Of a stretch of DNA of 24,000 bases, positions 15,330 through 18,812 are shown in pieces. The DNA comes from Desulfurococcales archaeon (GTDB lineage Archaea > Thermoproteota > Thermoprotei_A > Sulfolobales > Acidilobaceae). The translations under genes were made by a program, and so were the position numbers. Under the pieces are notes generated by a model, which did no database searches, was not told where the DNA came from, and saw nothing but the letters and a program-made list of their open reading frames with translations. The stretch spans positions 1-24,000 of the forward strand of contig WAOT01000056.1 of the NCBI GenBank assembly GCA_015521115.1. The letters are read 5' to 3'. How positions within the stretch are numbered: the stretch's first letter is position 1; the number at the start of each line of letters is the position of its first letter.

Positions 15330-15788
15330 TTACTCTTTAGGCGTGAAGTAGAGGATGTCTGTTATGCTGCCCGTCCTCTCCTCTGCAGGTTTGAAGACAG
15401 GCTCGACCGGCATGCCCGGGTAGATCTTGTCTGGTTCTGCCTTAACCCTGTGTATTAGGCCTCCTGTGGCCCCATCAGGTCTTATGAGGGCTAGGATCTC
15501 GGGCTCGGGTAGGCGGTTGCCCTCTAGATCCTCGTATATTACAGTGTATAGGGTGACCCTCCACTTCCCTGTTATCTCTACTAACTCGCCCTCAACGTGG
15601 TCTGGGCAGAAGGTGAGTGGGGGTACAATGATCTTGTCGCCACACTTCATGCCAAGTATCTTGCCCTCTTTGAGGGCCTTGGCTAGCTCTAGCCCGTGAA
15701 GGCCGGGTGTGTATACGTATTCCTCGACCTCCTGGCTCCCGGGGTAGAGTATTACGTCCTCGACCCTCCTAGGCTTCCACCAGGACAT
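15330..15788 (-). CDS. DUF35 OB-fold protein with degenerate zinc ribbon
   Basis: It aligns with the neighbouring DUF35 paralog (KALKEGKILGMKCGDKIIVPPLTFCPDH versus KGLKEGKILGVKCPVCGRVYVPPRAFCEYCH). Two of the four Zn-ribbon Cys are replaced (CGDK...CPDH). The C-terminal OB-like region reads LIRPDGATGGLIHRV. Confidence 0.8.
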   Translation of the reverse strand: MSWWKPRRVEDVILYPGSQEVEEYVYTPGLHGLELAKALKEGKILGMKCGDKIIVPPLTFCPDHVEGELVEITGKWRVTLYTVIYEDLEGNRLPEPEILALIRPDGATGGLIHRVKAEPDKIYPGMPVEPVFKPAEERTGSITDILYFTPKE

Positions 15789-15794
15789 GCCTCT

Positions 15795-16328
15795 TCACCC
15801 CTCAACCGGCTCGAAGCACTCAATATCGTTGATGTCTCCCTTCCTCTCCTCCGGCGGCTTCCACCGTGGCTTCACCCTCATCCCGATTGCTTTACCGCTC
15901 ATCACGTCCTCTGGCTTAATACCGCAGAGCCTGTGGAAGAGGCCTGCGAACTCGTAGCTCCCCTCAGTGTAGCCCGGTGCGTCGAGCTTTATGACCCCAA
16001 CGATCTCAGGCTCCTCCATCCTCTCTCTGAAGGTTGAGATGTAGCTCACCACAGCAGTATGGATCTCACCAGTACCCGGCAGCTCAACCCACTCATTCAT
16101 AGGGACATGGCAGTACTCGCAAAAGGCTCTTGGGGGCACGTATACGCGTCCGCATACCGGGCACTTCACTCCCAGGATCTTACCCTCCTTGAGCCCCTTC
16201 AGGAACTTTGACTGTGCTATTCCAGCGCTAAACCTGTACTTTGCCTGGGGCTTGTAGCGGACTAGTCCCGGGAGGGAGTACATCTCGGCCCTCTTAAGGT
16301 ACCTCCCCGGAAGCTTATCCACGGTCAT
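15795..16328 (-). CDS. DUF35 (Zn-ribbon + OB-fold) protein, thiolase-complex scaffold family
   Basis: There is an intact C4 ribbon, CPVCGRVYVPPRAFCEYCH, followed by an OB-fold-like region (GEIHTAVVSYIS...IVGVIKLD). Confidence 0.85.
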   Translation of the reverse strand: MTVDKLPGRYLKRAEMYSLPGLVRYKPQAKYRFSAGIAQSKFLKGLKEGKILGVKCPVCGRVYVPPRAFCEYCHVPMNEWVELPGTGEIHTAVVSYISTFRERMEEPEIVGVIKLDAPGYTEGSYEFAGLFHRLCGIKPEDVMSGKAIGMRVKPRWKPPEERKGDINDIECFEPVEG

Positions 16329-16340
16329 CTCCTACACCCC

Positions 16341-17519
16341 CTAGTTCGAGAGGACTATAACAGTGCCCGCCTGCATCAGGTCTCCCCACGCTTGGGCTAC
16401 TCCCTTGTGGACGGGCTTCTTCACCTGCCTCCTGCCTGCCTCGTAACGGAGCTGCCAGAAGATCTCGGCAGTCTTCATTAGACCTGCCGCTGCGATAGGG
16501 TTCCCCACTCCTAGCAGTCCACCGCTCGGGCTCGTCGGGAGGTCTCCGTCCCTATAGAATACGCCCTCCTTCAGCAGCTTCCAGGCCTCGCACGGCCTTG
16601 CTAGCATTAGGCCCTCGATGTGGTGTAGCTCCTTATAGTCGAATGGGTCGTAGGGCTCTGCGACATCGATCTCCTTCCACGGCCTCTCGATACCTGCCAT
16701 CTTGTAGGCCATCCTAGCAGCGTAGTTAACATACCTGGGGAAGGCTAGCTCCCTGTTATACCAGTGGGTGTTGTCTAGTGTGAAGCCTATGCCCTCGACC
16801 CATACGGGGCTGTCAGTTATCCTCCTAGCCATGTTCTCCCTCGCGAGGACGAGGGCTGCGGCTCCATCGCTGACAGGGCTGATGTCAAGCCTGTTGACCG
16901 GCCATACTAGGAGCTCGCTGTTCAGGACGTCCTCTACCGTTATCTTGGCAGCGGCCTGTGCTGCCGGGTGGTCTAGGGCGTTCGCCTTGTTCTTCACGCT
17001 CACGAGGGCAATGTCCTCCTTCTTAGCGCCGCACTTATGCATGTACCTGCGCATCTCCATTGCGAAGATCCATATCAGGTTGGGGCCGAGGGGCCTTTCC
17101 AGGATCGGATCCCAGATGTAGGCGAAGACTCCCTGAGGGTGTGGGTGTGCCGGGCTCATCTTCTCCTCCGCAACAGCTAGAACAGTGTTGCACATTCCAC
17201 TAGCTACATGCCACCATGCGGCGACGGGAACCATTACACCGGTGCCCCCTCCAACGTAGACCCTGACTGTAGGCTTCATCCACCCACCGCTCCCGTCTGC
17301 AAGGTACTCGCCATTGAAGTGGACTCCATCGAAGGCGTCGGGGGCTGTCCCGATGACAACACAGTCTATGTCCTTCAGGGTCAGCCCAGCACTGTCTAGG
17401 GCCATCTTAGCCGCTTCCCAGGCCAGCTCCCTAGGAGTCTCTAGGAGCCTCCTCCGGAAAAGGGTCAGCCCTGCCCCGACAATGGCGACCTTATCCTTCA
17501 CATGAATGTTCGTCCTCAC
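16341..17519 (-). CDS. Thiolase-fold (SCP-x/archaeal thiolase-like) protein lacking the canonical catalytic residues
   Basis: Thiolase-like landmarks: KVAIVGAGLT, VLAVAEEKMS, VSVKNKANALDHP, ISPVSDGAAALVL, TSPSGGLLGVGNPIAAAG. Where the nucleophile motif (xxCxSG) is expected, the sequence reads VYVGGGTG. Confidence 0.85.
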   Translation of the reverse strand: MRTNIHVKDKVAIVGAGLTLFRRRLLETPRELAWEAAKMALDSAGLTLKDIDCVVIGTAPDAFDGVHFNGEYLADGSGGWMKPTVRVYVGGGTGVMVPVAAWWHVASGMCNTVLAVAEEKMSPAHPHPQGVFAYIWDPILERPLGPNLIWIFAMEMRRYMHKCGAKKEDIALVSVKNKANALDHPAAQAAAKITVEDVLNSELLVWPVNRLDISPVSDGAAALVLARENMARRITDSPVWVEGIGFTLDNTHWYNRELAFPRYVNYAARMAYKMAGIERPWKEIDVAEPYDPFDYKELHHIEGLMLARPCEAWKLLKEGVFYRDGDLPTSPSGGLLGVGNPIAAAGLMKTAEIFWQLRYEAGRRQVKKPVHKGVAQAWGDLMQAGTVIVLSN

Positions 17520-17535
17520 CTGACCATCACCCCCC

Positions 17536-18696
17536 TCAAATTGTGGACAAGATTACCGCCGCCGCAGTGTAGGTCGGGGGCCCCCTCCAGCTCGCCACCA
17601 TCACCCTCTCGGGCTCGTTCGTTGGGTACTCTGTGGCCCCCATGAGCTGGAGGTAGGCCTCTAAGAGGCGGGCTCCCCCGGTCGCCTCCAGCATCACACC
17701 AATACTCTGGCTCCCCCCGCTAGGGTTTACTGGTAGAGCGCTGTTGTAGTCTAGGTCTCCGTTCTCCAGCATCTTCACAGCTTCCCCCTCCTTAGCGAAG
17801 CCCATCTCCTCTAGGAATAATGGCTCGAGGAAGGCGAAGCCGTCCTCTATCTCGAGGGAGTCGATATCCCTTGGTGAGAGGCCTGCCATGTTGAACGCCA
17901 TGTCAGCGGCAGCCTTGGCAGCAGGCATCCTTCCGAATGTGTGTAGGAACACGCTACCCGTCCCCACCTCGGTAGCGTATCCTACCCCCTCGACCCACAC
18001 TGGGGTGTCTGTCACTCTCCTAGCTACATCCTCTGACGCGAGCACGAACACGACAGCACCGTCAGCGTACGAAGCTGTCTCAAGCCTCCTAATAGGCCAC
18101 ATACTGTACCCGCTCTCCACAACATCCTCAAGCGTTATGCGGGCAGCGTAGCTGGCCCTCGGGTTTAGGAGGCCGTTCCTCCTGTTCTTCACGCTCACAA
18201 GCCCTATCAGATCCCTATCAACACCCGTCCTCATGAGGTAGGCGTGCATGTCTAGGGCAGCGAGGAATAGGGGGTTACCCGGCTTTAGGGGCCTAATGTA
18301 GAGGGGGTCGAGGGCTAGCTCGTATATCCCTTGGAGCGTCTCAATATCGCTCTGCTTCGAGTGGGACTCGACGGCAACCACGTCGAAGGCCCCGCTACGT
18401 ATCATCATGACGGCCTGGGCAACGCCCTGTAGGAGGTCTCCTGCGACGGTGAAGGTAGGCCTTAACACACCGCCCAATGGTTCTGGCGCGAACTCGTCAG
18501 CTATCGCTATACCCTCCCAATAGTCCTCCTGACAGCTAACAAACCCATCGATATCGCTTCTCGGGTCAACACCGGCGTCCTGATAGGCTCTTGTTGCGGC
18601 CTCAAACATCATCTCCCTAAAGGACAGCTCGGGCACGCTTGGCTTGAAACCGTAGTAGCCCGCGCCTATGATGGCTACTCTCCTCAAGGATCCCAT
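17536..18696 (-). CDS. Thiolase-fold protein (second paralog), also lacking the canonical catalytic residues
   Basis: Landmarks: RVAIIGAGYYG, VVAVESHSKQS, VSVKNRRNGLLNP, ASYADGAVVFVL, VNPSGGSQSIGVMLEATG. The expected nucleophile position reads FTVAGDLLQG. A GGGGAGG Shine-Dalgarno-like sequence sits just upstream of the ATG at 18696. Confidence 0.85.
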   Translation of the reverse strand: MGSLRRVAIIGAGYYGFKPSVPELSFREMMFEAATRAYQDAGVDPRSDIDGFVSCQEDYWEGIAIADEFAPEPLGGVLRPTFTVAGDLLQGVAQAVMMIRSGAFDVVAVESHSKQSDIETLQGIYELALDPLYIRPLKPGNPLFLAALDMHAYLMRTGVDRDLIGLVSVKNRRNGLLNPRASYAARITLEDVVESGYSMWPIRRLETASYADGAVVFVLASEDVARRVTDTPVWVEGVGYATEVGTGSVFLHTFGRMPAAKAAADMAFNMAGLSPRDIDSLEIEDGFAFLEPLFLEEMGFAKEGEAVKMLENGDLDYNSALPVNPSGGSQSIGVMLEATGGARLLEAYLQLMGATEYPTNEPERVMVASWRGPPTYTAAAVILSTI

Positions 18697-18812
18697 GCCT
18701 CCCCGCTAGGGCACCGCAGCCCAGCCTGCAGGCCGGGCCGCGCTGCCGTGGGGTATGGGTGGGAGGAGTGTTGGGATAACTGGTTTGTCCGTGGAAAAAC
18801 ATATACGGAATT

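Follow-up and report, generated by a model that had tools for sequence, protein, structure and literature searches.

The active sites that come closest to the one reported here are those of thiolase-fold retro-aldolases of bacterial steroid catabolism that bind a DUF35 domain. In Ltp2, Sal, and the related protein TbSLP, the H-D-C-F motif of SCP2-type thiolases is replaced by Y-D-H-F, Y-D-C-Y, and Y-D-C-F, respectively; the Tyr at this motif is a proven catalytic base, and the nucleophile position of Sal is a Gly. As second catalytic residue Ltp2 has Tyr344 and Sal has Cys304, and Gln352 of Sal occupies the position of Ltp2 Tyr344 (PMC12329534). A secondary account (PMC6678751, citing Wilbrink et al. 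2012) also describes Ltp3-Ltp4 of actinobacterial sterol catabolism as a proposed heteromeric aldol-lyase that removes C24 branches, on genetic evidence only. We analyzed a 24,000-nt stretch of DNA (the window; positions 1 to 24,000 of contig WAOT01000056.1, assembly GCA_015521115.1) from a Desulfurococcales archaeon of the Acidilobaceae. It contains a four-gene operon encoding two thiolase-fold proteins, T386 and T392, in which all canonical catalytic residues are replaced, and two DUF35 proteins, D177 and D152 (Table 1). The replacement residues of T392 are nearly invariant and partly match those of Sal and Ltp2, suggesting a C-C lyase that acts on short coenzyme A (CoA) esters.

Both large proteins belong to the thiolase superfamily. 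T392 scores 784 bits against the NCBIfam equivalog PRK06065 (cut-off 455) and T386 524.4 bits against PRK06066 (cut-off 516); Pfam recognizes Thiolase_N and Thiolase_C_1 in T392 and Thiolase_C_1 in T386, and in a phmmer search of the PDB both align over their full length with the archaeal thiolases 6ESQ and 7YVY and with the thiolase-like protein ST0096 (4YZO). The AlphaFold2 models of T392 (pLDDT 88, pTM 0.90) and T386 (pLDDT 91, pTM 0.93) have the five-layer thiolase fold with N- and C-terminal halves. In Foldseek, both models superpose best on the DUF35-bound thiolase 6ET9_C (TM 0.92 for T392 and 0.90 for T386), and the structures of BbsB, PhlC, Ltp2, Sal, and TbSLP superpose on the models at TM 0.82–0.88.

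As a yardstick for the catalytic residues we aligned both proteins with the canonical thiolase of the same genome, encoded on contig C32 (Cys85/His289/Cys291/His339). In T392, the nucleophile Cys85 corresponds to Gly91 (codon 17247–17249), His289 and Cys291 of the H-D-C-F motif to Tyr290 and Pro292, and His339 of the G-H-P motif to Asn340. In T386, the last three positions are Glu284, Gly286, and Val334, and the nucleophile loop is three residues shorter and contains no Cys. Thus the Cys of the V-E-A-A-C-A-S-G motif and the H-D-C-F and G-H-P residues are missing from both proteins. A first-pass annotation, made from the sequence of the window, had assigned both proteins to the thiolase fold, proposed that every catalytic residue is substituted, placed the Gly91 codon, and read the motifs as YDPF and GNPIAAAG in T392 and EDGF and GVMLEATG in T386; all of this held. 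Its placement of the T386 nucleophile position at about Ala85 falls in the gapped loop, where the exact residue is ambiguous, being Leu88 in the MAFFT alignment and a Thr in the HMMER alignment; no Cys lies nearby, and the loss of the nucleophile stands either way.

Neither family has an invariant Cys among 14 orthologs from at least eight taxonomic families, and, judged from these residues, Cys-dependent thiolysis cannot be catalyzed by T392 or T386. A thiolase or acyltransferase with a non-canonical nucleophile, for instance a Ser or a residue provided by T386 or a DUF35 subunit, would fit the database label of these proteins, “acetyl-CoA C-acetyltransferase,” as well as the acetoacetate-CoA ligase found beside the operon in some lineages, for which a thiolase is the natural next step, and Asp87 in the nucleophile loop of T386 is invariant among orthologs. 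However, we consider this very improbable: besides the missing Cys, the oxyanion and acid-base His/Cys positions are both gone, and the database names come from automatic annotation. Canonical Cys/His/Cys/His thiolases are encoded elsewhere in every genome checked, namely the source genome and G010, G067, G098, G110, and G145, and the idea that T386/T392 is the only thiolase of the cell was rejected on the same six of six genomes.

The two proteins are conserved to very different degrees. Among the 14 orthologs, 155 of 392 positions are invariant in T392 and 23 of 386 in T386; in the four former catalytic loops the counts are 25 of 31 and 2 of 31. The loops of T392 are thus far more constant than the protein as a whole (40%), and across orthologs they read RV[FY]VGG[GA]TG, E[PV]YDPF, GVGNPIA, and QAWGDLMQ; Gly91, Y290-D-P-F, and the C-terminal loop W378-G-D-L-M-Q, which includes Asp380, are invariant. 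Identity across Thermoproteota families is 61–76% for T392 and 34–51% for T386, and for T392 it does not fall below 68% in the 80 best named loci. Recent horizontal transfer was considered as the source of this high identity and rejected because the genes in the same loci diverge far more: T386 and the DUF35 proteins are just 31–55% identical (D177 41–55%, D152 31–46%). Based on the alignments, the replacement residues of T392 are under very strong selection, and we presume that T392 is the catalytic subunit, with a rebuilt Gly/Tyr/Pro/Asn site.

T386, by contrast, is probably a fast-evolving, non-catalytic structural partner that lacks a conserved pocket; its E-D-G-F motif has no aldolase-type Tyr. 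SSO2061, whose orthology to T386 is taken from gene numbering alone, has been detected in a Sulfolobus proteome (PMC3518317). The first-pass annotation had offered a hetero-oligomeric lyase or a non-catalytic scaffold as alternatives for the doubled pair. The subunits are not equivalent, and these alternatives probably apply to different subunits, T392 as lyase and T386 as scaffold, because T392 is extremely conserved and T386 has no conserved pocket; the aldolase chemistry itself we infer by analogy.

The whole complex could also be non-catalytic, whether as a scaffold, as a binding or carrier protein for acyl-CoA, or as a regulator organizing other acyl-CoA enzymes. Every canonical residue is lost in both proteins, probably structural Cys-less thiolase-fold partners are known (a protein encoded on contig C35 of the same genome, described below, and ST0096, 4YZO), and DUF35 proteins are known scaffolds (10.1101/2024.07.05.601840; PMC6996347). 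Yet a scaffold would not be expected to keep 25 of 31 loop positions and to carry the same motifs into bacterial fusion proteins while T386 drifts, and the conserved polar set Tyr290, Asn340, Asp380, and His104 of T392 looks like an active site. We regard a purely non-catalytic complex as improbable.

T392 shares with Ltp2 and Sal a Cys-less nucleophile position combined with a Tyr in a Y-D-x-[FY] motif, a pattern that T386 does not have. Equivalence to individual Sal and Ltp2 residues was assigned by motif transitivity and residue spacing; Tyr290 and Asn340 are 50 residues apart, as are Tyr294 and Tyr344 of Ltp2 and Tyr302 and Gln352 of Sal. The resemblance, as far as motifs can tell, is real but incomplete. 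The Ltp2-type repurposed site suggested in the first-pass annotation is accordingly the best analogy for T392 and does not extend to T386; the annotation overlooked Ltp3-Ltp4, the Gly/Tyr/Cys/Gln pattern of Sal (PMC12329534), the existing NCBIfam models, and the match to PDB entry 3IRB.

The explanation that we favor, with belief and doubt in about equal measure, is a DUF35-clamped alpha/beta thiolase-fold C-C lyase acting on short acyl-CoAs, with retro-aldol cleavage of a 3-hydroxyacyl-CoA as its likeliest reaction. The four genes would encode one hetero-oligomeric enzyme of the SCP2/archaeal-thiolase fold that does not carry out thiolysis. T392 would provide the working active site (Gly91, Y290-D-P-F, Asn340, and W-G-D380-L-M-Q), T386 would be its partner, a paralog with an intact structure but a degenerate catalytic site, and D177 and D152 would each clamp the thiolase-fold core in the manner known for DUF35 from Ltp2-ChsH2, Sal-Shy, PhlACB, and the thiolase/HMG-CoA synthase (HMGCS) complex. 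By analogy with Sal and Ltp2, Tyr290 would deprotonate the beta-hydroxyl of a short 3-hydroxyacyl-CoA, possibly supplied by an acyl-CoA dehydrogenase (ACAD) and a hydratase. The C-alpha/C-beta bond would then break to give an aldehyde or ketone and an acyl-CoA enolate, which Asn340 and backbone amides may stabilize and which an acid would protonate. Candidates for this acid are Asp380, His104, and His299/300; Asp380 is invariant and lies in the loop that carries the acid-base Cys of classical thiolases. Acting beside an ACAD and an ACS-type or acetoacetate-CoA ligase, the complex may serve the catabolism of short, possibly branched acyl-CoAs; judged from the neighboring genes, branched short-chain acyl-CoAs derived from amino acids are a reasonable guess for the substrate.

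The four genes follow one another head to tail on the minus strand, only 16, 12, and 6 nt separating the successive open reading frames (ORFs), as the first-pass annotation had described, and their start codons are consistent with the N-termini of the orthologs. A GGAGG motif lies a few bases 5' of the T386 ATG, and an A/T-rich TATA-like stretch about 90–100 nt upstream of T386 overlaps or adjoins the stop codon of the preceding gene. The intergenic region is otherwise GC-rich and contains the palindrome GCCTGCAGGC. The genes flanking the operon are unrelated to it: a surface-protein-like gene lies upstream and a convergent nuclease-like gene downstream. The source genome (1.73 Mb, 59 contigs) is 99.9% complete; the closest named relatives of T392 (92–93% identity) come from Acidilobaceae and “Desulfurococcales” metagenome-assembled genomes (MAGs).

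Table 1. Features of the four-gene thiolase-fold/DUF35 operon, in positions of the window.
Feature	Coordinates	Strand	Description	Basis
T386 (beta subunit)	17536..18696	-	386 aa; thiolase-fold protein, NCBIfam PRK06066	ORF and family matches
T392 (alpha subunit)	16341..17519	-	392 aa; thiolase-fold protein, NCBIfam PRK06065	ORF and family matches
D177 (DUF35 partner 1)	15795..16328	-	177 aa; zinc ribbon CPVC...CEYC and OB fold	Pfam
D152 (DUF35 partner 2)	15330..15788	-	152 aa; degenerate zinc ribbon	Pfam, alignment with 3IRB
Upstream intergenic region	18697..18812	-	presumed promoter and leader of the operon	read from sequence

D177 matches PF12172 and PF01796 above the gathering score (44.7 and 46.6 bits), its top PDB matches are 3IRB and 6ESQ_E, and its C4 zinc ribbon is kept in 12 of 12 aligned orthologs. 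D152 just passes the Pfam cut-offs (PF12172, 23.3 vs. 23.2 bits; PF01796, 27.4 vs. 27.1 bits) and aligns end to end with SSO2064 (PDB 3IRB) from residue 1 (MSW); the protein at the D152 position of a Sulfolobaceae locus (L013, 9611–10045) has nearly the same N-terminus as 3IRB. The paper on the SSO2064 structure (PMC2954200) treats neither the operon nor the loss of catalytic residues. As the first-pass annotation had noted when it contrasted the intact ribbon of D177 with that of its partner, D152 reads KCGDK...FCPDH; only two Cys of the four remain, and each knuckle is two residues shorter. This form is not an assembly error, since it is common to relatives in several lineages (Acidilobaceae, Pyrodictiaceae, Aeropyrum, and Thermodiscus relatives). 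D152 orthologs of Sulfolobaceae, Bathyarchaeia, and Geothermarchaeota keep the C4 ribbon, and those of Thermoproteus and Thermocladium have three Cys. In bacterial proteins with two fused DUF35 domains, described below, the first domain of L138:9001-11193 has no ribbon Cys and the second has one, and both domains of the L139 protein are C4. Because ribbon Cys are lost in the D152 clade and in the L138 fusion, it seems that in some lineages the second DUF35 protein can fulfill its role without the zinc site.

The operon is conserved well beyond the Acidilobaceae. We found the order T386-T392-DUF35-DUF35 in 11 of 13 orthologous loci and, by our count, in about 58 of the 79 named archaeal loci that carry T392. 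The named loci belong to Acidilobaceae, Pyrodictiaceae, Aeropyrum, Sulfolobaceae, Thermoproteaceae, Bathyarchaeia, and Geothermarchaeota, with a few from Asgard and Methanofastidiosia MAGs whose assignment rests on the binning of single contigs. A survey of 301 Thermoproteota genomes showed a single copy of PRK06065 in 58; all sampled members of some families have it and no sampled member of others does, and Sulfolobus acidocaldarius, included as a control, is also positive.

The link between the alpha subunit and the DUF35 proteins is direct in a natural fusion, a 731-aa protein composed of a T392-type domain, complete with the four replacement motifs, and two DUF35 domains in tandem. More than 600 such alpha-DUF35-DUF35 proteins are found in Bacteria, under the source names Pseudomonadota, Planctomycetes, Bradymonadales, Actinobacteria, and Desulfocapsaceae; the fused alpha domain is 55–60% identical to T392 and retains YDPF, GNPI, and WGDLMQ. 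These fusions constitute Rosetta-stone evidence that alpha binds both DUF35 proteins. In both bacterial loci examined, a beta-type gene of 368–369 aa overlaps the fusion gene by 4 bp, a linkage that speaks for an association of beta with alpha and the DUF35 proteins. Adjacency and coupling of the alpha and beta genes are thus observed at archaeal and bacterial loci alike.

To place the two subunits we searched cluster representatives, classified their four catalytic positions, and built a midpoint-rooted FastTree phylogeny, which contains no named reference enzymes and is descriptive. One superclade holds the canonical Cys/His/Cys/His thiolases. Apart from it, an alpha clade with the pattern Gly/Tyr/[Pro or Ala]/Asn contains T392, a true PRK08313 member, and the alpha proteins of a sister system at loci L022 and L023, and its sister, a beta clade with a shortened nucleophile loop and variable residues, contains T386 and the L022 partner. 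Since alpha and beta form sister clades apart from the canonical thiolases, their pairing appears to be old, and the operon is its most conserved orthogroup.

The sister system (L022:7660-10462 and L023:7441-10245) consists of an alpha protein with Y-N-P-F and N-P motifs, a beta protein, and just one DUF35 gene. Its alpha protein is about 43% identical to T392, falls under the PRK06065 cut-off, and has a Cys shifted by one position (ATCGSTG). Cys-less paralogs with a Gly/Tyr/x/Gln set, the pattern nearest to Sal, were also found at L123, L132, L133, and L134 (G110, Sulfolobaceae), L110 (G010), and L111 (G145). G110 encodes 12 thiolase-fold proteins, of which two have the full Cys/His/Cys/His set, a third has Cys/His/Ala/His, and four have Gly/Tyr/x/Gln.

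Neighboring genes were counted within 10 kb of the operon at 95 loci, many of them incomplete. An ACAD is the most frequent neighbor (27 of 95), often directly upstream and co-directional, followed by an ACS/PrpE-like ligase with an ACAS_N domain (17 of 95). An MCM-type mutase occurs at 10 loci, with MeaB close by in about 8; a 2-oxoacid dehydrogenase E1 alpha gene occurs at 6, and acetoacetate-CoA ligase homologs at 3 (L016, L017, and L026). The L016 ligase, the one scored among these three, reaches 746 bits against an equivalog cut-off of 521; in NCBIfam typing of the adjacent ACADs and most of the ligases, no other protein reached an equivalog cut-off. The gene after the operon is IOR-like in Sulfolobaceae locus L013 and of similar size in L065 and L106. 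In L071, from a Hodarchaeota MAG (Asgard), an aldehyde:ferredoxin oxidoreductase shares one co-directional run with an ACAD; as a regular neighbor the oxidoreductase was rejected, since it occurs at 2 of 95 loci, too few to carry weight. The bacterial locus L138 includes a ligase and an ACAD, with a class-IV aminotransferase and a 2-oxoacid:ferredoxin oxidoreductase nearby.

ACADs are present in 60 of 60 PRK06065-positive genomes and in 59 of 241 negatives among the 301 sampled, which we read only as a nested pattern because related genomes are not independent. In one genome of the source organism's genus, about 2 kb separate the operon from an ACAD gene. The source genome itself encodes five ACADs and, elsewhere, two crotonase-type hydratases, one of them in a 678-aa open frame. 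On its contig C31 (58334–63762), an ACAD is paired with an ACS-like ligase (669-aa frame; 346 bits on the acetoacetate-CoA ligase model, under the cut-off), and these same two types flank the four-gene operon in related genomes.

Several observations weigh against the retro-aldolase proposal. The aldolase proton donor is absent, as T392 has Pro292 at the position of Sal Cys304 and Asn340 at that of Ltp2 Tyr344; with these counterparts lost, the mechanism is incomplete as drawn and needs another proton donor. By NCBIfam scores, T392 is nearer to the archaeal thiolase families PRK06064 and PRK08313 than to the “lipid-transfer protein” models, and an aldolase function would therefore be convergent. 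No metabolic gene adjoins the operon within the window, and at the 95 loci genes for aldehyde oxidation seldom do so (2 of 95). MaoC (PF01575) is absent from the 99.9%-complete source genome, and none is fused or adjacent to the operon, unlike in ChsH2 and Shy. The phyletic argument is weakened by the kinship of the sampled genomes, what argues for the alpha/beta heteromer is linkage and tree topology, and our literature search found no biochemical data on any member of the module.

The lost aldolase acid also invites the alternative that the T392 pocket binds acyl-CoA but catalyzes other chemistry: decarboxylation of a malonyl-, methylmalonyl-, or beta-ketoacyl-type CoA, isomerization or hydration, or a non-covalent Claisen-type condensation. 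TbSLP, with its Y-D-C-F motif, is a weak malonyl-CoA decarboxylase (PMC12329534), the MCM-type mutase and MeaB lie close to the operon in about 10 Bathyarchaeia loci, and a true acetoacetate-CoA ligase adjoins it in L016, with homologs in L017 and L026. On the other hand, the sole proven role of a Tyr at this motif is that of a retro-aldol base, an adjacent ACAD suits a step after desaturation and hydration better than a decarboxylase, and the source genome has no carboxylase (PF01039) to provide carboxylated substrates. We consider such chemistry somewhat unlikely, although it is the strongest competitor of the retro-aldolase.

Other thiolase genes lie close to the module in some genomes. L018:8422-10001, L019:10341-11916, and L020:10129-11874 contain a canonical Cys/His/Cys/His thiolase with its own DUF35, divergent from the four-gene module. 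The Bathyarchaeia loci L084, L086, L089-L092, L096, and L100 contain a divergent thiolase-like match and a DUF35 gene beside the module, the class of the former being taken from BLAST alone. At these loci, an MCM-type mutase and MeaB are found just downstream.

The source genome encodes four thiolase-fold proteins, of which only the C32 thiolase (64229–65524) has the full Cys/His/Cys/His set. The operon is not the mevalonate thiolase/HMGCS/DUF35 set, as the first-pass annotation had argued; a mevalonate-type set of HMGCS-sized, thiolase-like, DUF35, and HMG-CoA-reductase-sized genes lies on contig C35 (50197–54103), where the DUF35 and thiolase domains have Pfam matches and the synthase and reductase were identified by eye from the ORF layout. 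The thiolase-like gene of this set (51896–53032), located between the HMGCS-sized and DUF35 genes, is Cys-less with Glu83/His275/Ser277/His326, similar to ST0096 (4YZO; ...NTSGSGG..., HDM).

The L016 ligase raised the idea that the complex substitutes for HMG-CoA lyase in classical leucine catabolism, which we rejected for the source organism: its genome has no match to the HMGL-like lyase model NF004283 (E <= 1e-5) and none to the carboxyltransferase PF01039, and without a carboxyltransferase methylcrotonyl-CoA cannot be carboxylated toward HMG-CoA. The lack of any HMGL-family match also suggests that isopropylmalate and citramalate synthases are missing from this genome, which would imply leucine auxotrophy.

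We found no paper on this module. The literature retrieved for DUF35, thiolase, archaea, aldolase, and SSO2061-2064 consists of bacterial steroid work, papers on the mevalonate complex, a preprint on the fatty-acid synthase of Sulfolobus, and the paper on the SSO2064 structure, none of which deals with the module. The curated models PRK06065 and PRK06066 already exist, both named “thiolase domain-containing protein” with no function given. Because databases name these Cys-less proteins as thiolases, thiolases are probably over-counted when the metabolism of Thermoproteota, Bathyarchaeia, Asgard archaea, and many bacteria is reconstructed; in the source genome, just one of the four thiolase-fold proteins can be a thiolase. 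For an accessory catabolic enzyme, T392 is unusually similar between archaea and bacteria, which points to an important reaction. If the aldolase reading is correct, T392 would represent a third catalytic solution (Tyr/Pro/Asn) among thiolase-fold aldolases and the first outside steroid catabolism.

A bolder version of this proposal, which we think distinctly unlikely, is that the module is a so far unrecognized, Cys-independent C-C lyase/synthase that is widespread in Archaea and many Bacteria, serves the central metabolism of short-chain acyl-CoAs, and uses a new Gly/Tyr/Pro/Asn set to cleave 3-hydroxyacyl-CoAs that normal beta-oxidation cannot oxidize. Tertiary 3-hydroxy-3-methylacyl-CoAs from leucine or isoprenoid-type chains would then be cleaved, providing a carboxylase-independent bypass of beta-branches; in this version the enzyme might instead work in the opposite direction and build carbon chains by an aldol-type reaction. 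An ortholog is present in the genetically tractable Sulfolobus acidocaldarius.

Among known systems, Sal-Shy(DUF35), the bile-acid retro-aldolase of Comamonas testosteroni (9MYR; PMC12329534), has the closest active site. It too combines an SCP2-thiolase fold with a bound DUF35, and like T392 it has a Gly for the nucleophilic Cys, a Tyr opening the H-D-C-F motif, and an amide 50 residues on (Gln352; Asn340 in T392); its TM to the T392 model is 0.84, and that of Ltp2 is 0.83. However, Sal requires Cys304 of Y-D-C-Y as acid where T392 has a Pro, it is a homodimer whose DUF35 is part of a MaoC hydratase, in contrast to two thiolase-fold subunits and two free DUF35 proteins, and its substrates are steroids, which are not plausible in these archaea. 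NCBIfam scores also place Sal and T392 in different clades. Ltp2-ChsH2(DUF35), the steroid C3 side-chain retro-aldolase of Thermomonospora curvata (6OK1), resembles T392 in its Cys-less fold, DUF35 partner, and Y-D-x-F Tyr. It differs in its acid, Tyr344, and its oxyanion-hole His296, where T392 has Asn340 and Pro292, and it is a homodimer, coupled to a hydratase, with a steroid substrate; D177 and D152 are free-standing, not tied to a MaoC hydratase as in Ltp2 and Sal.

In its gene arrangement, as described in the account cited at the outset, Ltp3-Ltp4 is the closest architectural precedent: the products of two neighboring thiolase-like genes that differ from each other are proposed to form one C-C lyase, with the task of cleaving at a beta-branch that blocks normal beta-oxidation. 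By NCBIfam scores, the two systems are not orthologous. The “lipid-transfer protein” models PRK08256, PRK07855, PRK06059, and PRK07937, which we match to individual Ltp proteins by length, score 91–159 bits against cut-offs of 419–469.

The archaeal thiolase/DUF35 complexes (6ET9) are nearest in fold (TM 0.92 and 0.90) and share the DUF35 clamp and the archaeal setting. Unlike T392 and T386, their thiolases are active and keep Cys/His/Cys/His, and their partners are HMGCS or reductase and dehydratase enzymes, with no second thiolase-like paralog and one DUF35 per thiolase type. PhlACB and MucABC (5M3K, 9VBO) do hold two different thiolase-superfamily subunits, one of them catalytic, by means of a DUF35 protein (PhlB), but PhlC has Cys88, PhlA is HMGCS-like rather than SCP2-thiolase-like, there is one DUF35 type, and the chemistry is a CoA-independent Friedel-Crafts acylation. 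PRK06065, PRK06066, and SSO2064 (3IRB) cover T392, T386, and D152 by name or structure, without a function. Based on these comparisons, the module belongs among the thiolase-fold/DUF35 complexes with repurposed active sites.

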